Part shown: positions 29,897 through 39,589 of the stretch, one piece after another
Layout of the letters: each line of letters opens with the position of its first letter
Position numbering within the stretch: the first letter of the stretch is position 1
Source of the DNA: a virus
Taxonomy: Duplodnaviria; Heunggongvirae; Uroviricota; Caudoviricetes
IMG/VR virus record: IMGVR_UViG_2850796239_000012
DNA: 51,993 bases
Direction: 5' to 3' (one strand)
Notes under the pieces: model-generated
The model's input: only the letters and a program-made list of their open reading frames with translations
Told to the model about the DNA's origin: nothing
The model's database searches: none
Program-made: the position numbers and the translations under genes

Positions 29897-31407
29897 CAGG
29901 CCTGTCTCCCCAGCTGTTCCCAGATATCCAGCGATGTATCGATTGGCGCGAAGGCCATAATGAATGCATCAGCAACGTTTGGTGACGGTATCTCGCGTTT
30001 TGCGAGGTCTTTTTTACTTTCGACCATCACACGTCCGTTACGGTCGAAATCACGATGAGGTGTTGTCAGTTCCAGTTTCAGCTTTTCAAGCAACGGACAA
30101 CGAGAATCTATGCTGATCAGCTCATCCACAGGATACTGTTCTCCGTTGTTAATGGCGTTAAACGTATTTCTGAAACGGTCAGCCACCAGCCACCATGCCT
30201 GAGCCTTAAGATTTGCGAAAAAGTCTTTGTTGGGGATGCCGTTGTACTCGTCATCTGGCTCATGCACACCAGCACCGGCGTTAAACCTCTGGTAATTCAC
30301 ACGTCGCGCGTATGCGTTCTCGCTCTTCCGGTCAGCGTTAATTTCAGAGAATTTAGCACCGGCAGACGCACCAACACCGATAGAGTCGTAAACAATATCT
30401 GCTTCACGCTCCAGCGCCGCCTGATAAGTACGCTGGCAGCTCTTCAGTAATTCATCTTCTTTGGCCTTCCATTCGTCGGCCCAGAAAACAACGGATCCGT
30501 GACGGTAAACGTTAGCGCACTTATCTGTACCACTGTCAGCCACGTCAAAGCCAATACGCTTTCTTCCACTGGGTTCGAAATTTAACGTTTTGTGCGCATC
30601 CACTGCGGCTTCTATCCAAGACAGTTTGATGATTGCCGCATCATCATCAGACTCCGGAACGCCCTCATACACATGTTTAAAACCATCCGGATCACGGCGT
30701 CGCGCCGCGTCGATAACCTTAAGCATGGTGTCAGACAGAAACGGATTTTCGTCATAGTTAATTTTGCGGATGAGAGTGCCTTCGGGCGGATCAACAACGA
30801 AGTTGCGCCAGACGAAATCAGTAACAAGTCCGGGGTTGAATATGAACCAGCATTCCGAACCCTCTTTACGGATCGTTGGCTCCAGAATTTTCCACTGGTA
30901 TTCCGTCAGTGCGTGGGCTTCTTCCAGCCACAACACATCGATCCCCTCCAGTGACTTAATTTCTTCGATGTTGCGCCATAATCCATAAAAAACAAATTCC
31001 GAGCCAGTAACCCGGTTAATGATTTTGTTGTTCAGAATACGGAAACGGTGCCGCAGACCAAACCTGTCTATCTGAATTTTGAGCAGGGTATACACCGACT
31101 CTTCGATTTTATTCTGGATCTGACGGGCACAACAAAAACGCAGGGTGTATTTATTCGACAGAAATATGGCAATGCCAGCGGCATCCCATGATTTTGACGA
31201 TGACCGACCACCATAAAGCACTTTGTTACGTGCCCGCATAGTCCAGAAACTACGTAAAGCCGGATTCAGCGTCGATTTGGATGTCAGAGTAGAAGTCATT
31301 GAGGTCACGCTCTCCATTGCCATCATCAATACCTGCATCACGGCGAAGACGATCAGCCTCCAGAGACACCTTATCAGTGGCGGCCTTGCGGTAGGCTGTA
31401 TCAGCAA
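29896..31407 (-). CDS. Terminase large subunit
   Basis: ATPase/nuclease-type product (…GGRSSSKSWDAAGIAIF… Walker A-like; …VLWLEEAHAL…); true start is probably an internal Met near 31300-31340. Confidence 0.8.
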   Translation of the reverse strand: MLIQPTARPPLIRCLWRLIVFAVMQVLMMAMESVTSMTSTLTSKSTLNPALRSFWTMRARNKVLYGGRSSSKSWDAAGIAIFLSNKYTLRFCCARQIQNKIEESVYTLLKIQIDRFGLRHRFRILNNKIINRVTGSEFVFYGLWRNIEEIKSLEGIDVLWLEEAHALTEYQWKILEPTIRKEGSECWFIFNPGLVTDFVWRNFVVDPPEGTLIRKINYDENPFLSDTMLKVIDAARRRDPDGFKHVYEGVPESDDDAAIIKLSWIEAAVDAHKTLNFEPSGRKRIGFDVADSGTDKCANVYRHGSVVFWADEWKAKEDELLKSCQRTYQAALEREADIVYDSIGVGASAGAKFSEINADRKSENAYARRVNYQRFNAGAGVHEPDDEYNGIPNKDFFANLKAQAWWLVADRFRNTFNAINNGEQYPVDELISIDSRCPLLEKLKLELTTPHRDFDRNGRVMVESKKDLAKREIPSPNVADAFIMAFAPIDTSLDIWEQLGRQA

Positions 31408-32013
31408 ATATTTTTCCTACCGTCGCAAGCGTGCCAACGATGGACTCAATACGAACTGTATTGCGCATCATTGCTTTCTCGGCGGCGCTGATATTTTCAA
31501 TCAGCATCTTCCTTTCCTGGTCCCCATTAGCATCTTCCAGCGACACCAACCACCGACCAATATTCTCTGCAGCGACAAGGTTGTTAGCACGAAGGCGAAA
31601 TAATTCGTCCTCGAGCGTCAACGCTTTAGCGTCCTCTATCACCTCATCTTTGAGCAGAAGGCGACGGGCATAACCACCGTGTTTTAATGCCTGCTGGTTA
31701 CCGGGTTGGAATGGGTTAGTCGGGGATCGGTACGCATTCCGCGTATCGGTTTCGTATCCGGTGTAGATTCTGTTTTTAGTTGCGTACTTTTTTGTGTAAG
31801 GCCAGTAATGGCAGGCTTTCTGCTGGTACGCACTTTCCTTTTTTGCGTACCATTTTTGCAAACCTGCGTACCGCCACTGCGTGCCCAACCAAGCTTTTTG
31901 GCCCTCTTCCTGATAGCCCCTTCTGTAACGCCGTATTTCTCGCCTATATCACGGAGGCTAAGGACTCCGGCCCGGTATGCCGATTCGATGGCCTCCCAGT
32001 CCGGTTTTGCCAT
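31250..32013 (-). pseudogene. Terminase small subunit, split across two frames
   Basis: N-terminal HTH ORF (MAKPDWEAIESAYRAGVLSLRDIGEKYGV…, 31684-32013) and a downstream ORF containing the …QQALKHGGYARR… motif (31250-31888) are offset by one base; adding one C to the CCCC run (plus-strand GGGG at 31722-31725) would join them as …TDPPTNPFQPGNQQALKHGGYA…. Confidence 0.55.
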
Positions 32014-32207
32014 GATTATGCTTCCTGTGATTTACTGTTATCGCTGCCTGTCACAATAGGTTGCTTTAATTCTTCCTCATCACTCACTCCTGCGACGCTC
32101 CGTGGCAGGGCCCCCCACAGGAGTACCTTGTAAATGTAAGGTGTTTAAGCCTAAATTAAGTCGTATCACGGTTAAATAGCAAAGAAAAATTCACAGAAGG
32201 AAAGACA

Positions 32208-32720
32208 TTGATGGAGTGGATAAATGCTTTGATGAACTATTTTGTACTTCATCCATATCGCCTATGGGGGCTTCTTTTTATAATAGCGTTCACAAAATCC
32301 ACTTTACTCATTTCGGCGATATTGCCACCAGCATCAATTATGATGGCCACTGTAATTACAGTCAGCAAGACGACTCTTTCACCATGGGAAGCTGGAATCA
32401 CGGTCATGAGTGGCGCATGGTGCGGTACTATCGTTAATTACCATCTTGGTATAATAATTGGGCATATCCCTCAACTTGCATGTATAATATCGAGCCGTTC
32501 CAATACAATAGAACGGGTTCGCCTTCAGTTGCAAAATAACTCTGTGTCAATACTTTTCACTTCGCGCTTTATCGCCGTGCTGCGTTATATTGCTCCTTTG
32601 GTGGCAGGAATGTTGCAACTTCATCCAGTGAAAGTGTATACAGTGAGTCTGATTTCAGCTGCTAGCTGGTCAGCACTTTATGTTGGTAGTTTTAGCTTCG
32701 TGTTGCCTTTTTTTAGCTAA
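32208..32720 (+). CDS. DedA-like (VTT-domain) membrane protein, moron candidate
   Basis: 170 aa, multiple TM segments, …FTSRFIAVLRYIAPLVAGM… resembles the DedA family motif; AT-rich; opposite strand to flanking phage late genes. Confidence 0.5.
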   Translation: MMEWINALMNYFVLHPYRLWGLLFIIAFTKSTLLISAILPPASIMMATVITVSKTTLSPWEAGITVMSGAWCGTIVNYHLGIIIGHIPQLACIISSRSNTIERVRLQLQNNSVSILFTSRFIAVLRYIAPLVAGMLQLHPVKVYTVSLISAASWSALYVGSFSFVLPFFS

Positions 32721-32808
32721 ACTGCCCATAAAAAGCTCTTGCGAATCCAGCTTCCCCCATTCCTCTGACAACAGAATCTGATTTGAAGGATAATGAGTAA
32801 AATTACCG

Positions 32809-33279
32809 CTACCCCCCAAGGCATTGGATCCTGATGTACTCCTGAAGCATTCTCAATGCTGTCTGGTCGCTGATGATTCCGTCCCGGATACCGAGAACGT
32901 TTCGTCCAGCAACTGGAGAGAGTTCGACGGTGGCATCATTGCCCATGCCGGAGGCGCTGGAGGTTTCGGCTGAGGATGGCACAGGGCATTTTCCTTTGAC
33001 GAGCACCCAACCACCATTATCAAGCTTGCGACGAAGAGCATCATTTTCAGCTTTCGCATTGGCTAACTCCTTCGTGTATTTAGCATCGAGTGCATCAGCA
33101 GCACGCTGGCGCTGCTGCATGTCAGTAATGGTTGCGTTCGCCAGCTTCAGTTCTCTTGCGTTTTTGTCGCGCTGCTCTTTGTAGGTAATGGCGTTATCAC
33201 GGTAATGATTAACAGCCCATGACAGGCAGACGATGATGCAGATAACCAGAGCGGAGATAATCGCGGTGACTCTGCTCAT
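32809..33279 (-). CDS. i-spanin (Rz)
   Basis: N-terminal TM segment followed by a coiled-coil periplasmic domain; immediately after the endolysin stop. Confidence 0.7.
32853..33059 (-). CDS. o-spanin lipoprotein (Rz1), embedded in Rz
   Basis: 68-aa ORF in the +1 frame inside Rz with lipobox …LIMVVGCSS… and a Pro-rich mature region. Confidence 0.7.
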
Positions 33280-33773
33280 TGCTGCCCCCACAAACAGACT
33301 TCACGCTCAATCTCACGACGGGTCATCAGCCCTTTCCATTGCTTACCGCCAGCATATGTCCAGCGACGTAGCTGGTCACATGCGCCTTTGATATCGCCCT
33401 GGTTTATTTTGCGAAGAAGCGTCGATGTTCTGAAATTGCCAGCGCCCACGTTGTAAACGAACGAGTAAAGAGCGCCGCGCGTTGTTTCCGGTATATCGAC
33501 TTTGATGTACGGGTTAATTTGTCTGGCGACAGTGGCAAGGTCTTTATTCAGGAGAGCTTTGCATTCTGCTTCGGTATACGTTTTACCAGGCATGATGTCT
33601 TTTCCGGTGTGTCCGTGACATACAGTCCATACACCAATGATATCTTTGTATGGTATGTAGCTGACACCTTCCAGACCATCGTTACCACCTGGGCCAGTGA
33701 TTAACACAGATGCTATAGCAACAGCCCCGCCACCAATAGCAACTGCAACAGCCTTGCGTAATGATGGCGACAT
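33276..33773 (-). CDS. SAR endolysin (phage 21 R21-type lysozyme)
   Basis: 165 aa with N-terminal signal-anchor-release segment [20 protein letters not shown] and T4-lysozyme-like catalytic region; near-identical to recalled R21. Confidence 0.85.
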
Positions 33774-33988
33774 TATTCACCTCTCGCAGCCTTACGCTTA
33801 TCTTCTCTTATTTTGAAATACAGATTCGTCAGATAAGTCAGAAGCCCCAGAAGCAGACTTCCCAGCACACCAATCGCAGCCCACTGTGATGGACTGACCT
33901 GATCCAACCACTGCAAAAACCAGTAGCCGGCACTGCCGGCGGAGGTGCCGTAGGCAATGCCTGTTGATATTTTTTCCATCTGATACAT
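33773..33988 (-). CDS. Pinholin (phage 21 S21-type), dual-start motif
   Basis: 71 aa, [27 protein letters not shown]… with two TM segments; Met1 and Met4 mirror the S21 antiholin/holin dual start. Confidence 0.85.
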
Positions 33989-34667: not shown

Positions 34668-34742
<75 letters not shown>

Positions 34743-34745
34743 ATA

Positions 34746-34821
<76 letters not shown>

Positions 34822-34823
34822 GC

Positions 34824-34900
34824 TGGCCCACCACCGAGGACTCGAACCTCGCACCGTCAACTTAGAAGGTTGATGCTCTATCCGGATGAGCTAGTGGTGG
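34824..34900 (-). tRNA. tRNA-Arg (anticodon UCU)
   Basis: Acceptor stem CCACCAC/GTGGTGG (unusual C1-G72), anticodon stem TCAAC/GTTGA with loop CUUCUAA, T-arm CGAGGTTCGAGTCCTCG, CCA encoded. Confidence 0.7.
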
Positions 34901-34901
34901 T

Positions 34902-34978
34902 TGGTGGCCCTTGCTGGACTTGAACCAGCGACCTGGCGATTATGAGTCGCTCGCTCTGACCAACTGAGCTAAAGGGCC
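34902..34978 (-). tRNA. tRNA with CAU anticodon, body resembling minor tRNA-Ile (ileX/ileZ type)
   Basis: GGCCCTT acceptor stem, anticodon loop CUCAUAA, T-arm GCTGGTTCAAGTCCAGC, CCA encoded; Ile(LAU) versus Met cannot be settled from sequence alone. Confidence 0.7.
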
Positions 34979-35167: not shown

Positions 35168-35722
35168 TCAAAAAGCAATAACTTTTTTCTCTATACCAAA
35201 AGCCATAACCATTGGTTTGTACAAAATAAATTCTGCCACCTTTAGCCAATGCTCAATGCGTCTTTCACAGGTTCTTAAACTCCATTTCGGGTGTGCATCA
35301 TTCAGCAGTTCAGCCATTTTGCGTTTGGTCATCCCCCGCCCCTCATACCGTTGCCGAAGGACGCTAATCAATCCTGGATGCTCTGCCAGCACCTCACTTA
35401 TGACCCGATCAATACATAACGCCTCTGCATCAGTACAATGCGCCAGCCAGCTCTTTTGCTTACCGTTAATCATATCCCGCAAAAAAGCCTCAAGTTCAGA
35501 CTTGTTCAGACCTGCTTTTTTCATCCTCCGGAGCGCCTCGTTAATTGCCGTTTTTGTCAGCTTTTTAGAGGTCAACATCAGGTTAAACATATTCCCCGTC
35601 TTACCGCCACCAATATACGACCAGCGCCCCCACATACGTAGTTTTCCCTGAATCCAGACACTTTCCAGCGTGGTGAGACGAAGGTGTTCTCCGCTTTTTC
35701 CTGTATTCGTTGGGTAAATCAT
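35168..35722 (-). CDS. Putative late-gene antiterminator (Q-like), assigned by position
   Basis: 184 aa from the internal Met with SD GGAGGG; ATGA overlap with the ybcO-like stop; followed by a terminator, tRNAs and the lysis cassette. Not recognised by sequence. Confidence 0.4.
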   Translation of the reverse strand: MIYPTNTGKSGEHLRLTTLESVWIQGKLRMWGRWSYIGGGKTGNMFNLMLTSKKLTKTAINEALRRMKKAGLNKSELEAFLRDMINGKQKSWLAHCTDAEALCIDRVISEVLAEHPGLISVLRQRYEGRGMTKRKMAELLNDAHPKWSLRTCERRIEHWLKVAEFILYKPMVMAFGIEKKVIAF

Positions 35723-36009
35723 AAATATCCCTCCTTTCTCCAGATTTCTTGTGTGCGAAAAACACCTTCTGCATGCATCAGGCGTAATTCTTCTTTGGTG
35801 TAATCGCTGGTTTTTACCCGCCCGTCGATTAAATCGTGGCACGAGCTACAGGCAATCGCTGCCTGCATATCGTGTGGCTTTATCGCTGTTCCGCACGTTC
35901 CCGCCAGTCGGTAATGCGCCAGCACAGACGTTTCCGGATCGTGATTGCAGTAGCCAGGAATTCTGACGGTGCACATCTGCCCCCGCGCCGCTTTAAGTAA
36001 ATCCACCAT
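35719..36009 (-). CDS. YbcO-like Cys-rich protein (DUF1364, putative nuclease)
   Basis: 96 aa with …RIPGYCNHDPETSVLAHYRL…CGTAIKP…ACSSCHD… resembling E. coli DLP12 YbcO as recalled; nin-region position. Confidence 0.65.
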   Translation of the reverse strand: MVDLLKAARGQMCTVRIPGYCNHDPETSVLAHYRLAGTCGTAIKPHDMQAAIACSSCHDLIDGRVKTSDYTKEELRLMHAEGVFRTQEIWRKEGYL

Positions 36010-36489
36010 TACGCAAACTCCAGCAGCTGCGCGGCCACATTTTCGACTTGTTCCGGAGAGGAAAATTTACGGAACAGAATCCAGTTCCACAGCACATTCA
36101 GTACAGATTTATAAACCTGCTGAAACTCGGTTTCGTCCATATTCGCAAACGCGATAGATTTCGCCCGACACCCACGGCTACCGTCCGGATAAAAATGCTC
36201 GGTGTAAAATCCGGCCTGAATGGCTACCCACTCGCGGAAAGCCTCAAACGACTTTAGCAATGCCGTATCACGGGTTCTGCGTGTCGCAACTGTATTCAGA
36301 TATTGCTCTGCGGCTTCGCTCAGAGCTGGCGTATGTTCCCGGCCTACTGATTCACACAGGTAATCAACGAAACCGGACACCAGTTTTCGTTCGCGAGGCG
36401 TGATCGCCCCACCGACCGGAGTCCAGTAATCGAAACCCAGTTGCAGGAGTTTGAAAAAACGCTTGTGGAATGCGTAGTTGGATTTGCCC

Positions 36490-37395
36490 CTATATTTCCA
36501 GACATCTGTTATCACTTAACCCATTACAAGCCCGCTGCCGCAGATATTCCCGTGGCGAGCGATAACCCAGCGCACTATGCGGATGCCATTCGTTATAATG
36601 CTCGAACGCCTCTGCAAGGTTCTTTGCTGCCGTTAACCCGTCTGGTTTGGGCATGATACTGATGTAGTCACGCTTTATCGTTTTCACGAAGCTCTCTGCT
36701 ATTCCGTTACTCTCCGGACTCCGCACCGCCGTGTTCTTCGGTTCAAGTCCCAACATCCGGGCGAACTGGCGTGTTTCATTAGCCCGGTAGCATGAACCAT
36801 TATCCGTCAGCCACTCCACTGGAGACGACGGAAGATCGTTGCCGAAGCGGCGTTCCACCGCTCCCAGCATGACGTCCTGTACTGTTTCACTGTTGAAGCC
36901 GCCGGTAGTCACCGCCCAGTGCAGTGCCTCACGATCACAGCAGTCCAGCGCGAACGTGACACGCAGTCTCTCTCCGTTATCACAGCAGAACTCGAACCCG
37001 TCAGAGCACCATCGCTGATTGCTTTCTTTCACGGCCACTCTGCCTGTATGTGCCCGTTTCGATGGCGGTACAGCAGGTTTTCGCTCAAGCAACAGCGCAT
37101 TCTGGCGCATGATCCGGTAAACACGTTTGGCATTGATCGCAGGCATACCATCAAGTTCTGCCTGTCTGCGAAGCAGCGCCCATACCCGACGATAACCATA
37201 CGTGGGCAGCTCTCCGATAACATGGTGTATACGGAGAAGCACATCCGTATCATCAGTGTGACGACTGCGGCGGCCATCCATCCAGTCATCGGTTCGTCTG
37301 AGAATGACGTGCAACTGCGCACGCGACACCCGGAGACAACGGCTGACTAAGCTTACTCCCCATCCCCGGGCAATAAGGGCGCGTGCGCTATCCAC
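36490..37395 (-). CDS. insD: IS2 OrfB (InsD transposase catalytic part)
   Basis: 301-aa DDE-type ORF overlapping orfA, typical IS3-family arrangement. Confidence 0.85.
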
Positions 37396-38902: not shown

Positions 38903-39589
38903 TCACTCCTTCTCTTCTTTACCGTAGTGGAGTTGACCAATTTTGATAAGAGGGCGTCCCTGAGATTTGCGGTGTAGATTGGTATCGCGCAGAGAATACA
39001 CACAGCCACAATATTCCTGCTGATAGAATTTTTCGCGCTTGCTGATTTCAATCATACGGGACGAGCCGCCCTGCTTGCGCCAGTTATAATCCCAGTACAC
39101 CATGCCCGGATAATGCGCGACGGCTCGCCGCCCACAGTCGTTAACCTGCTGCATATTTTTCCAGCGTGAAATGCCCAGTGAACTGCTGATCACACTGAAA
39201 CCATTTTCAGCGGCGTACAGCGCTGTCCGCTCAAAACGCATGTCAAAACACATGGTGCAACGGATCCCTCGTTCGGGCTCCCATTCCATTCCTTTGGCTC
39301 GTTCAAACCAGTTGTCTGTGTCGTAATCAGCATCAATAAACGGCACGCCGTGTTGTTCAGCAAAGCGAATATTCTCATCCTTACGAATTAAATACTCTTT
39401 CTGAGGATGAATGTTCGGGTTGTAGAAAAAGATGGTGTAGTCGATTCCCGAAGCCTGAAGCGCCTCCATCACCTCACCGGAACATGGAGCACAGCAAGAG
39501 TGCAGTAGTAGTTTGTTTGCCCCGTTTGGGAGCTCCAATTTGGGCCGTTTGAAATCAGCAACTGTCATAAATATGTTTATTGGGGTCAT
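38903..39589 (-). CDS. QueH-like (DUF208) Cys-rich protein, putative epoxyqueuosine reductase homologue
   Basis: 228 aa with …[11 protein letters not shown]… and …CTMCF… / …CGC… cysteine motifs characteristic of DUF208/QueH as recalled. Confidence 0.55.

Follow-up and report, generated by a model that had tools for sequence, protein, structure and literature searches.

An antisense DedA-family cargo gene with an unusual active-site variant in the Rz-terminase slot of a Shigella-type prophage

The window analysed here is a 51,993-nt stretch of DNA (IMG/VR record IMGVR_UViG_2850796239_000012), and the element that hosts the locus described below is a defective Shigella-type 'ipaH island' prophage. 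Between its small-terminase-like gene and its lysis cassette lies a gene for a DedA-family membrane protein, located on the plus strand, whereas all of the genes adjoining it are on the minus strand. The features of the locus, in window coordinates, are as follows.

From 29896, minus strand: large terminase.
31249..32013, minus strand: small-terminase-like gene with an N-terminal HTH (HTH matches weak, below Pfam thresholds), divergent from the DedA gene and frameshifted.
32016..32135, no strand: left junction segment; homology with the DedA-less prophage PEC148 ends at 32015.
32136..32210, plus strand: leader of ~75 nt that travels with the gene (DNA alignments with orthologues, sequence).
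32142..32158, plus strand: PhoP-box-like direct repeat TGTTTA-agcct-AAATTA, matching 9/12 consensus positions (motif scan).
32172..32177, plus strand: -10-like hexamer TTAAAT (5/6), 13 nt downstream of the direct repeat; no -35 hexamer.
32197..32201, plus strand: Shine-Dalgarno sequence AAGGA (sequence).
32211..32720, plus strand: coding sequence of the DedA/VTT-family inner-membrane protein (ORF, Pfam VTT_dom, PGAP annotation, conserved ATG, dN/dS).
32721..32780, no strand: right cassette end and short junction; Citrobacter homology stops at ~32739.
32809..33291, minus strand: Rz i-spanin, which ends the lysis cassette and converges with the DedA gene (Pfam Phage_lysis, 100.3 bits).
32853..33059, minus strand: candidate Rz1 o-spanin embedded in Rz (lipobox ORF).
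33276..33773, minus strand: lysozyme.
33773..33988, minus strand: P21-type holin.

An earlier note on this DNA had described a DedA-like gene encoded opposite to the surrounding late genes, between the terminase and lysis modules and in an AT-rich stretch. This description holds in each respect: the Rz, lysozyme, holin and terminase genes all occupy the minus strand, the DedA gene sits between the small-terminase-like gene and Rz, and the GC content is 0.41-0.44 over positions 32000-32750, compared with ~0.49-0.52 on either side and 0.493 for the window as a whole. The DedA coding sequence itself has a GC content of 0.42 and a GC3 of 0.39. The small-terminase-like gene has lost 1 nt near 31721, as judged against WP_001118113.1, an intact protein of 254 aa.

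The 170-aa open reading frame of the earlier note does exist (32208..32720) and corresponds to RefSeq WP_011069285.1, which begins at the TTG codon at 32208, but the conserved start is the ATG at 32211, yielding a protein of 169 aa; in the comparison with six orthologues, three of them have TTC or CTG in place of the upstream TTG. Both the profile search and the topology check that the note had proposed bear out its view of the product as a multi-pass membrane protein of the DedA/VTT type. The Pfam model PF09335 matches with 52.4 bits (gathering cutoff 33.9 bits; E 9.3e-14) over profile positions 3-121 of 123 (119/123) and is present in all 19 of the close homologues (19/19), the RefSeq/PGAP name is already "DedA family protein", and hydropathy and an AlphaFold2 (AF2) model agree on a multi-pass helical topology. 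The DedA core fold consists of two re-entrant helices, each packed against a transmembrane helix and each preceded by an amphipathic helix (PMC7818093; PMC10127716). In the AF2 model, built from a 46-sequence alignment (pLDDT 77.5, pTM 0.74), helix breaks at residues 31-41 and 121 coincide with the expected re-entrant tips, with the first of these loops having a pLDDT of only 51-54. A previous model based on 17 sequences reached a pLDDT of 56 and was discarded as too poor, and a search for a solved DedA structure for comparison found none. Values of dN/dS for the coding sequence are 0.11-0.25 against six orthologues, which argues that the plus-strand frame at 32211..32720 is coding, and codon comparisons of this kind indicate that the gene is under purifying selection.

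The gap between Rz and the terminase genes is a variable cargo slot among lambdoid and E. coli prophages, holding borD in DLP12 and DUF1398/YlcI or Gp49/DUF2560 genes in others. In the related prophage PEC148, which is 98.8% identical across the terminase genes, the gap measures 57 bp and contains no antisense gene. The same cassette is found at the corresponding position in a lambda-like prophage of Citrobacter that is unrelated and has a GpA terminase and a GH19 endolysin, and homology with that prophage is confined to ~600 bp (about 32136..32739) comprising the leader and the DedA frame. This leader is common to the C. youngae prophage copy and to chromosomal Citrobacter copies. The occurrence of the same cassette in an unrelated prophage, together with the existence of chromosomal relatives, strengthens its status as a moron. 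The DedA gene is an extra gene in its slot with a composition unlike that of its neighbours, two of the attributes by which a moron is recognised, the others being a promoter and terminator of its own and expression from the repressed prophage. The moron position proposed by the earlier note is borne out by the variability of the slot, the sharing of the cassette and its distinct composition.

At the junctions, the left segment (32016..32135) was found in five E. coli genomes only, every one of them a DedA carrier, and on the right side homology with common E. coli Rz regions restarts at 32765-32780. An inverted-repeat arm at 32743..32756 is complementary to positions 32386..32399 of the coding sequence. 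We found no flanking direct repeats at the cassette ends and no intrinsic terminator in the DedA region. A DLP12-type junction was ruled out, as the essD-rrrD-rzpD homology (89%) stops inside Rz at 33031. The PEC148 lysis cassette also differs from that of the window.

Our literature search returned no report on DedA proteins in prophages or as morons. When 50,697 phage records were searched with the region, megablast gave no match, and tblastn gave nine distant matches of 24-30% identity, which may be host-derived, since a draft bacterial genome and short records lacking annotation account for several of them. Two further candidates for mobile copies were rejected. A C. freundii 'plasmid' copy resides not on a phage-plasmid but on a chromosomal-type segment with icd, rluE, mnmA and purB, in which a DinI-VTT pair adjoins icd, and in IMG/VR contig L107 the DinI-VTT module lies just outside the apparent end of a Mu-like prophage and does not represent a third intra-phage slot.

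By sequence comparison, the window protein is placed in a small and distinct DedA subfamily that is restricted to the Enterobacterales and is of the COG0586 type, whose members are putative PMF-driven UndP flippases (Todor et al., PMC10127716). The subfamily profile gives 58 bits with YqjA (COG0586), 11.5 with YdjX, 8.4 with YqaA and -1.3 with YdjZ; with representatives of COG0398 and COG1238 it does not exceed 11.5 bits. More specific models are not reached: with the NCBIfam UptA equivalogs (NF052604/NF052605) the window protein scores 19.5 bits where 250 are required and 16.0 bits where 300 are required, and with PRK10847 it scores 30.7 bits (cutoff 236). When YqjA is aligned with the window protein (170-aa numbering), S52 corresponds to S43, E39 to K30, D51 to A42, R130 to R120 and R136 to R126. 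Among the residues that define COG0586, the arginine pair is thus kept, and the acidic residues are replaced by lysine and alanine. Residues at these DedA positions are functionally important (bioRxiv 10.64898/2026.09.20.752871; PMC7818093; PMC11474028; PMC10127716). None of these five residues of the window protein varies within the subfamily, whose members go down to 36% identity. At the E39 position, glutamate is found in 126 of the best 146 library-wide matches that cover it, with lysine confined to the 19 subfamily members.

The leader was inspected for elements that might drive the gene. A consensus scan of the leader preceding the DedA gene found no sigma-70 promoter, and an Rfam scan of 31800-33000, in which a Mg2+ riboswitch was considered on account of the MgtE neighbours of the orthologues, revealed no riboswitch or leader RNA, its single match being a chance snoRNA. 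The PhoP box has the form (T/G)GTTTA-N5-(T/G)GTTTA, in direct orientation and ~12 nt upstream of the -10 element (PMC8355897; PMC3335776). Taken alone, the similar repeat in the window is not significant (p ~0.43 by shuffling), and its second half-site is the most degenerate among all of the copies. In position it corresponds to the proximal box that every Citrobacter and Enterobacter orthologue has; this box matches 9-10 of 12 positions in nearly all of them (8 in one) and lies exactly 12 nt from the -10 element, compared with 13 nt in the window. Perfect distal boxes exist at 22 Enterobacter-clade loci, all at one orthologous site, with none elsewhere in the 988 kb scanned, and the geometry of proximal and distal boxes fits PhoP promoter architectures I and II (PMC3335776). 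The perfect distal box was found only where an MgtE-like gene is present and may therefore serve that gene instead. No PhoP box was seen upstream of the Arsenophonus, Morganella or Kosakonia orthologues. Collectively, these patterns are consistent with the DedA gene of the window possibly being PhoP-regulated.

The chromosomal neighbourhoods of the orthologues also point towards Mg2+. An MgtE-like gene adjoins the DedA gene at 25 of 30 Enterobacter-clade loci and at 6 of 22 Arsenophonus loci, and a CorA gene does so at all eight Morganella loci (8/8); no Mg2+ channel neighbour is present at the Kosakonia, C. amalonaticus and most Arsenophonus copies. The presence of these channel genes and of a PhoP-type promoter architecture, perfect in Enterobacter and degenerate in the window, suggests that the subfamily may act in a low-Mg2+/PhoPQ envelope response.

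The DedA gene is an ordinary kind of element, a cargo gene, with an unusual active-site variant. We favour, at a probability of roughly 55%, the reading that it is a moron captured as a cassette into the Rz-terminase slot and that its product is a COG0586-type lipid-phosphate DedA protein lacking proton coupling, from a possibly PhoPQ-linked subfamily. The gene would probably act in lysogenic conversion, as a source of an atypical, proton-uncoupled protein of the lipid-phosphate/UndP type, and is a plausible modifier of the host envelope. According to this proposal, the ~600-bp cassette would have been captured from a Citrobacter/Kosakonia-type lineage and placed antisense to the Q-dependent late operon, such that the gene would be driven by its own leader in lysogens and would be read in antisense when the phage grows lytically. 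The arginine pair R120/R126 and S43, on the re-entrant helices, would bind a lipid phosphate headgroup, and the protein would most likely bind an anionic phosphate-bearing lipid and equilibrate it between the two sides of the inner membrane in a proton-uncoupled manner. UndP would be the first candidate lipid, because the proteins most closely related to the subfamily are fusions of a DedA domain with a PAP2 lipid-phosphate phosphatase. A lysogen could thereby gain a capacity for envelope-precursor recycling or membrane homeostasis. Alternatively, the loss of the glutamate and aspartate could mean that transport activity is lost or changed rather than uncoupled.

A more elaborate version of this proposal is doubtful: the undescribed Enterobacterales subfamily, with lysine in place of the otherwise universal proton-binding glutamate, might constitute a constitutively 'charged', proton-uncoupled scramblase of lipid phosphates (UndP or similar) in the PhoPQ/low-Mg2+ response, captured by lambdoid phages for PhoP-inducible envelope remodelling in Shigella and Citrobacter lysogens (e.g. 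support of lipid A/O-antigen modification, cationic-peptide tolerance in host cells), and dedA(Ecl) might also be a gene of this subfamily.

The association with Mg2+ channel genes could instead mean that the subfamily works with or regulates these channels, or affects Mg2+/Ca2+ flux or membrane potential, in which case the prophage copy would alter the Mg2+ homeostasis of the lysogen. We regard such a divalent-cation role as unlikely. Two unrelated channel families, MgtE-like and CorA, adjoin subfamily genes in three lineages, and a perfect box for PhoP, the low-Mg2+ regulator, lies in the shared Enterobacter intergenic region. The phage cassettes, however, travel without a Mg2+ channel gene, several of the chromosomal copies noted above are likewise without one, and the Morganella corA-rarD adjacency resembles what we take to be ordinary enterobacterial synteny, judging from E. 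coli gene order, into which the DedA gene has been placed. Moreover, the arginine pair and the lysine make the binding site cationic, which fits an anionic ligand and not a metal cation. Studies of other DedA proteins can be counted in favour of the role, as Mg2+/Ca2+ rescues the phenotypes of K. pneumoniae yqjA/yghB mutants, in which Ca2+ uptake is lowered, and Xanthomonas XdfA is required for Mg2+ maintenance (PMC10846249), but the same source reads these effects as indirect, acting via membrane polarisation (PMC10846249).

We consider it a little less probable again that the gene is a functionless passenger, a remnant in a decaying cryptic prophage in which the missing glutamate and aspartate mark an inactive DedA protein. 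The prophage is indeed defective, with the small-terminase-like frameshift, an ipaH gene that looks truncated and insertions of IS3 and IS66, and other prophage copies carry IS1/IS2/IS600; the window copy has drifted AT-rich in its GC3; and D51A or E39A inactivates YqjA (bioRxiv 10.64898/2026.09.20.752871; PMC7818093). The K30/A42 pattern, however, is not a product of decay, being invariant throughout the subfamily, and numerous Enterobacter species retain subfamily members, as do Arsenophonus endosymbionts whose genomes are <1 Mb. Purifying dN/dS values apply to all pairs, both prophage copies included (0.24 for the window copy versus the Citrobacter prophage copy), and the DedA frame is intact in 18 of 18 prophage copies while adjoining genes are broken. 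Intactness within Shigella is only weak evidence of selection, given a defective prophage whose copies in Shigella and E. coli are near-clonal; contigs with the exact window protein nonetheless number at least 1000 and represent three Shigella species.

The gene might instead serve the phage itself, by tuning membrane potential for holin triggering or lysis timing, or by superinfection exclusion at the inner membrane. Holins are triggered in a way that depends on how the membrane is energised, and exclusion is the role of many cargo genes that prophages carry in slots of the late region. This last reading is the least probable: although the gene adjoins a holin-endolysin-spanin cassette in two unrelated prophages and DedA loss changes membrane polarisation in K. 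pneumoniae (PMC10846249), its opposite strand means that it is not co-transcribed with the lysis genes, most subfamily members are chromosomal with no phage context, no PADLOC defence model matches it, and none of the nine phage-record matches is a close relative.

Cassette mobility, purifying selection, the Lys/Ala residue pattern, the Mg2+ channel neighbours and the occurrence of PhoP boxes are new here. DedA proteins have recently emerged as lipid/undecaprenyl-phosphate flippases behind polymyxin resistance, alkaline tolerance and virulence, and a subfamily that keeps the arginines and exchanges Glu for Lys represents a natural test case for the proton-coupling model. The window prophage also carries an ipaH effector gene; if expressed under PhoPQ-inducing conditions, the DedA protein would be a phage-delivered envelope modifier in an intracellular pathogen. 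The perfect Enterobacter PhoP box and the Mg2+ channel neighbours provide a concrete, testable link between a DedA protein and the low-Mg2+ response, one that may also be relevant to the colistin heteroresistance of the E. cloacae complex. In Enterobacter, dedA(Ecl) has reportedly been linked to colistin heteroresistance. Should none of these readings be true, the locus is no more than a cryptic prophage's cargo gene with a DedA-family annotation.

Several known systems offer comparisons. In lambda and DLP12, Bor and BorD are, like the window gene, encoded antisense right after Rz in the same slot (borD in DLP12), and Rz-terminase cargo genes such as Bor likewise have their own upstream leader and a composition unlike that of the late genes. 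Bor is an outer-membrane lipoprotein, whereas the window product is a polytopic inner-membrane DedA protein with no sequence relationship to Bor/BorD, and, unlike in Bor/BorD-type cargo, no terminator was detected for its gene. PhoP-activated horizontally acquired genes (e.g. mgtA, pmrD, virK, ybjX) have a direct repeat in place of the -35 element, and a similar repeat lies 12-13 nt from the -10-like element in the window and the orthologues; a second, perfect box further upstream gives the Enterobacter orthologues the layout of architecture II. The candidate box of the window matches only 9/12 positions, with a degenerate second half-site.

Among proteins of known function, YqjA is the best E. 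coli match (24% identity, E 1e-8, shared VTT/DedA domain), and the arginine pair on its second re-entrant helix and the serine beside its D51 position are kept in the window protein, whose predicted helices appear compatible with the two broken (re-entrant) helices of YqjA and COG0586. YqjA/YghB, B. subtilis UptA/YngC, P. aeruginosa PA4029 and Burkholderia DbcA, however, are ~200-220 aa long compared with 169 aa, and by alignment the C-terminal ~40 residues of YqjA are missing from the window protein, which also differs from COG0586 DedA proteins in being carried on a prophage. The essential glutamate (YqjA E39 / UptA E32) is an invariant lysine in the subfamily and the essential aspartate (D51) is an alanine; as both essential acidic residues are absent, phenotypes of the YqjA/YghB/DbcA type (polymyxin, pH, temperature) are not simply transferable to the window protein. 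A library-wide profile search identifies DedA-PAP2 (and DedA-PAP2-LssY_C) fusions as the nearest relatives outside the subfamily, and such fusions have been used as an argument for UndP transport (bioRxiv 10.1101/2022.02.03.479048). They possess the same arginine pair as the window protein, and their D51 position is also non-acidic (A/S/T/V), but they are multidomain proteins of 450-700 aa with glutamate at E39, whereas the window protein is a stand-alone VTT protein with lysine at this position.

The plus strand of the window carries an ORF at 32208..32720 that begins with TTG and encodes 170 aa. Its product matches Pfam PF09335 (VTT/DedA) at 52.4 bits against a cutoff of 33.9, with nearly the entire profile covered, and the identical protein, WP_011069285.1, is named "DedA family protein" in RefSeq. 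An earlier note, made by inspection of the sequence, had proposed a 170-aa DedA/VTT membrane protein here; the profile search bears out the family and the ORF is present, but its start needs correction, as alignment with six orthologues places the conserved start at the ATG at 32211, one codon after a TTG that is TTC or CTG in three of the six. The setting that the note described, antisense to the late genes in an AT-rich stretch, likewise holds: the ORF listing and Pfam matches put all genes around it on the minus strand, with lysis genes on one side and terminase genes on the other, and GC is 0.41-0.44 over 32000-32750 versus about 0.49-0.52 nearby.

Late genes around the DedA ORF
from 29896, minus strand, large terminase
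32809..33291, minus strand, Rz spanin (Pfam Phage_lysis, 100 bits)
33276..33773, minus strand, lysozyme
33773..33988, minus strand, P21-type holin
35168..35842, Q-like antiterminator, upstream of the lysis genes

Because the antiterminator lies upstream, the late transcript must cross the DedA ORF antisense. An Rz1 o-spanin candidate of 68 aa (32853..33059, minus strand; lipobox VVGC, Pro-rich) is embedded in the +1 frame within Rz, and the lysis cassette is complete.

Profile searches, both word-based and exhaustive, together with a scan of species-representative genomes, define a small subfamily around this protein, comprising members of 148-185 aa found only in Enterobacterales: Enterobacter (many species), Lelliottia, Huaxiibacter, Kosakonia, Citrobacter, Hafnia, Morganella, Proteus myxofaciens, Entomohabitans and Arsenophonus, including Arsenophonus endosymbionts with genomes of 0.85-0.93 Mb. 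In the profile search E fell below 1e-30 for just 12 cluster representatives out of 1.84 billion, and the nearest matches beyond the subfamily are VTT domains at the N-terminus of DedA-PAP2(-LssY_C) fusions of 450-700 aa. Since the subfamily profile favours E. coli YqjA (COG0586; 58 bits) over YdjX/YdjZ (COG0398; at most 11.5) and YqaA (COG1238; 8.4), the subfamily is classed by sequence as COG0586 type under the scheme of Todor et al. (PMC10127716), in which that class includes UndP flippases. The window protein scores far below the cutoffs of the NCBIfam DedA and UptA equivalog models, and we therefore assign it to the DedA superfamily as a COG0586-like member and not as a YqjA/UptA equivalog.

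A DinI-VTT tandem pair was observed in C. freundii (locus L091, 6584..7510), in C. meridianamericanus and in an IMG/VR contig (L107, about 5590..6513); further coordinates for such pairs are 7584..8510 in loci L082/L083. The C. freundii pair adjoins icd, a classic attachment site of lambdoid phages, and has Ail/Lom and ars genes close by, in a record that is labelled an 82-kb plasmid yet has chromosomal housekeeping genes. In L107, candidate resemblances are to Mu for ORFs on one side of the pair and to SRAP, macro-domain and DUF4433 (DarG/DarT-like) proteins for ORF N-termini on the other.

Alignment with YqjA pairs the residues important for its function as follows.

Residues of YqjA and their counterparts in the window protein
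YqjA R130, R120 in the window protein
YqjA R136, R126 in the window protein
YqjA S52, S43 in the window protein
YqjA E39, K30 in the window protein
YqjA D51, A42 in the window protein

Each of these YqjA residues is required for function (bioRxiv 10.64898/2026.09.20.752871; PMC7818093), and the equivalent E32, R112 and R118 of UptA add to C55-P binding (PMC11474028); according to Todor et al. (PMC10127716), the acids bind the proton and the arginines the UndP phosphate. All five window-protein residues are invariant in the subfamily, even between members that share only 36% identity. Of the 146 top library-wide matches covering the E39 position, 126 have Glu and 19, exclusively subfamily members, have Lys, while the D51 position already lacks an acid (A/S/T/V) in the PAP2-fusion clade. 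The Glu-to-Lys swap is thus, as far as sequence comparison goes, the hallmark of the subfamily, and the predicted site contains three basic residues and zero acid. An AF2 model from a 46-sequence alignment (pLDDT 77.5, pTM 0.74) is all-helical, with predicted helix breaks at the expected positions of the two re-entrant tips. A search for a comparable solved structure found none, in agreement with the literature, in which an experimental DedA structure does not exist.

As a whole, the reading that we favour, with a probability of roughly 0.55 and with much higher confidence in its descriptive parts, is that the gene is lysogenic-conversion cargo and that its product is an atypical DedA protein of COG0586 type. 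This protein would bind an anionic phosphate-bearing lipid, with UndP as the first candidate, and would move it without PMF coupling, which we propose because the proton-binding acids are missing; the lysogen would gain extra capacity to recycle envelope precursors or to maintain membrane homeostasis, perhaps when PhoPQ is induced. Others have cited the fusion of the nearest relatives to PAP2 lipid-phosphate phosphatases as evidence of UndP transport, since the two domains would act in successive steps (bioRxiv 10.1101/2022.02.03.479048).

Genes for Mg2+ channels recur beside the subfamily. The DedA gene adjoins an MgtE-like (CBS+MgtE) gene in most Enterobacter-clade loci (25 of 30) and in some from Arsenophonus (6 of 22); the MgtE-like genes of these two groups are 58% identical orthologues in differing orientations. 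In all eight Morganella loci the neighbour is CorA; the DedA gene looks vertically inherited in these lineages.

Comparison loci with Mg2+ channel neighbours or PhoP boxes
L020-L048, about 6880..6915 (e.g. L024)
L005, 6611..7612
L008, 9034..10050
L062, 7520..8470

DedA proteins of Klebsiella and Xanthomonas have been linked to Mg2+/Ca2+ homeostasis (PMC10846249). A role centred on Mg2+ homeostasis is the rival that we rate highest, and we consider it unlikely.

A perfect PhoP box, TGTTTA-N5-(G/T)GTTTA, occurs in 22 Enterobacter-clade loci within the intergenic region shared with the MgtE-like gene, in direct orientation and some 100-124 nt before the ATG, with a spacer that differs among species; all 22 lie at one orthologous site, and the 988 kb scanned contain no other perfect box. 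A proximal direct repeat, (T/G/C)GTT(G/T)A-N5-nATT(T/G/C)A, is present in every Citrobacter and Enterobacter-clade copy and is followed, after exactly 12 nt, by a T(T/C)(A/T)AAT hexamer, with no -35 element; PhoP promoter architectures I and II have this proximal-repeat/-10 geometry (PMC3335776; consensus, PMC8355897). Given the Mg2+ channel adjacency and the sole perfect-box site in 988 kb, we predict a previously undescribed PhoP-regulated DedA/MgtE locus in Enterobacter, at which PhoP control is likely, though the distal box could act on the divergent MgtE-like gene. The window retains the proximal element only.

Putative promoter elements in the window
32142..32158, plus strand, proximal repeat TGTTTA-agcct-AAATTA
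32172..32177, plus strand, hexamer TTAAAT, 13 nt after the proximal repeat

This copy, at 9/12, has degenerated furthest and by itself does not reach significance (p about 0.43), and PhoP control of the prophage gene is only a tentative possibility. As reviewed elsewhere, one dedA paralogue of the E. cloacae complex is required for PhoPQ-linked colistin heteroresistance and is up-regulated on introducing Ecr, proposed to act via PhoPQ.

The closest relative of the window protein (78% identity) is encoded in a C. youngae prophage of another type, with a lambda-like GpA terminase and a GH19 endolysin, where the gene is likewise antisense with lysis genes on one side and terminase genes on the other. 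DNA homology between the two prophages is limited to about 32136..32739, consisting of a leader of about 75 nt, the ORF and about 15-20 nt past the stop. In PEC148, a related E. coli prophage without the DedA gene, the terminase genes are 98.8% identical, homology stops at 32015 and only a 57-bp gap is present; on the right, homology to the common E. coli Rz region restarts 28-44 nt beyond the Rz stop. Other prophages carry borD (DLP12), DUF1398/YlcI genes or Gp49/DUF2560 genes in the same slot, and in the genomes searched the 120-nt left junction was never seen apart from the cassette. The dN/dS ratio is 0.11-0.25 in every orthologue pair (0.24 for the two prophage copies), and the ORF is intact in 18/18 Shigella/E. 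coli element copies examined; an apparent break in locus L092 was rejected as an offset artefact. Cassette mobility in a variable cargo slot, purifying dN/dS and an intact ORF thus make the moron reading of the earlier note well supported. The same dN/dS values, with subfamily-wide conservation, argue against a functionless passenger, which we regard as improbable. A phage-serving exclusion or lysis-timing function is less probable still, given the strand opposite to the lysis genes, the mostly chromosomal distribution and the lack of a PADLOC match.

Just beyond the right end of the cassette, 32743..32756 forms a 14-nt inverted repeat, 13/14 complementary, with 32386..32399 inside the DedA CDS. 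The repeat may be a recombination scar from the placement of the block, or it may have arisen by chance (rough expectation about 0.07). A conserved 50-aa ORF overlaps the Rz stop codon, 3' of Rz, in about 1,800 E. coli genomes; homology of the window to it ends 28-44 nt past that stop, where the DedA block starts, and the 49-aa ORF at 32670..32819 (minus strand) is therefore a chimera.

The carrier, a prophage of Shigella type, is inserted between pgl and ybhA and is a Shigella 'ipaH island'; its near-identical copies have an ipaH effector gene at their tail-fibre end. In the near-identical copy of FDAARGOS_944 this gene is an intact ipaHb of 608 aa next to pgl (L110, 18261..20087). The ipaH ORF of the window looks truncated: it is 461 aa, with a T3SS LRR N-terminus and no NEL domain match, and is followed by IS66-family genes.

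Region of ipaH in the window
2849..4234, 4999..5673 and 6037..7638, plus strand, ipaH ORF and IS66-family genes

The window prophage is visibly decaying. Relative to the intact 254-aa WP_001118113.1 of FDAARGOS_944, a 1-nt deletion near 31721 frameshifts the small-terminase-like gene (31249..32013, minus strand; N-terminal HTH), splitting it into ORFs 31684..32013 and 31250..31888; the prophage is probably packaging-defective, or the missing base is a sequencing error. A DUF1367 gene (36009..36515, minus strand) is interrupted by an IS3-family transposase ORF (rve domain, 36490..37395). Four tRNA genes (34668..34978, minus strand; Gly-TCC, Thr-TGT, Arg-TCT and one with a CAT anticodon that ARAGORN assigns to Met and PGAP to Ile) sit inside the late operon leader, between the Q-like antiterminator and holin genes, and with a QueH epoxyqueuosine reductase gene (38903..39589, minus strand; Pfam 220 bits) constitute tRNA-modification cargo. 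The DedA region is present in only 6 of 5,426 complete E. coli genomes, and the exact protein occurs on at least 1,000 contigs of S. flexneri, S. sonnei, S. dysenteriae and E. coli.

The DedA-family annotation and the cargo slot of a cryptic prophage are already known, and the element is of an ordinary kind. What goes beyond annotation is the evidence for cassette mobility, the definition of a distinct DedA subfamily in which Lys replaces an essential Glu, and the association of that subfamily with Mg2+ channel genes and with PhoP boxes.
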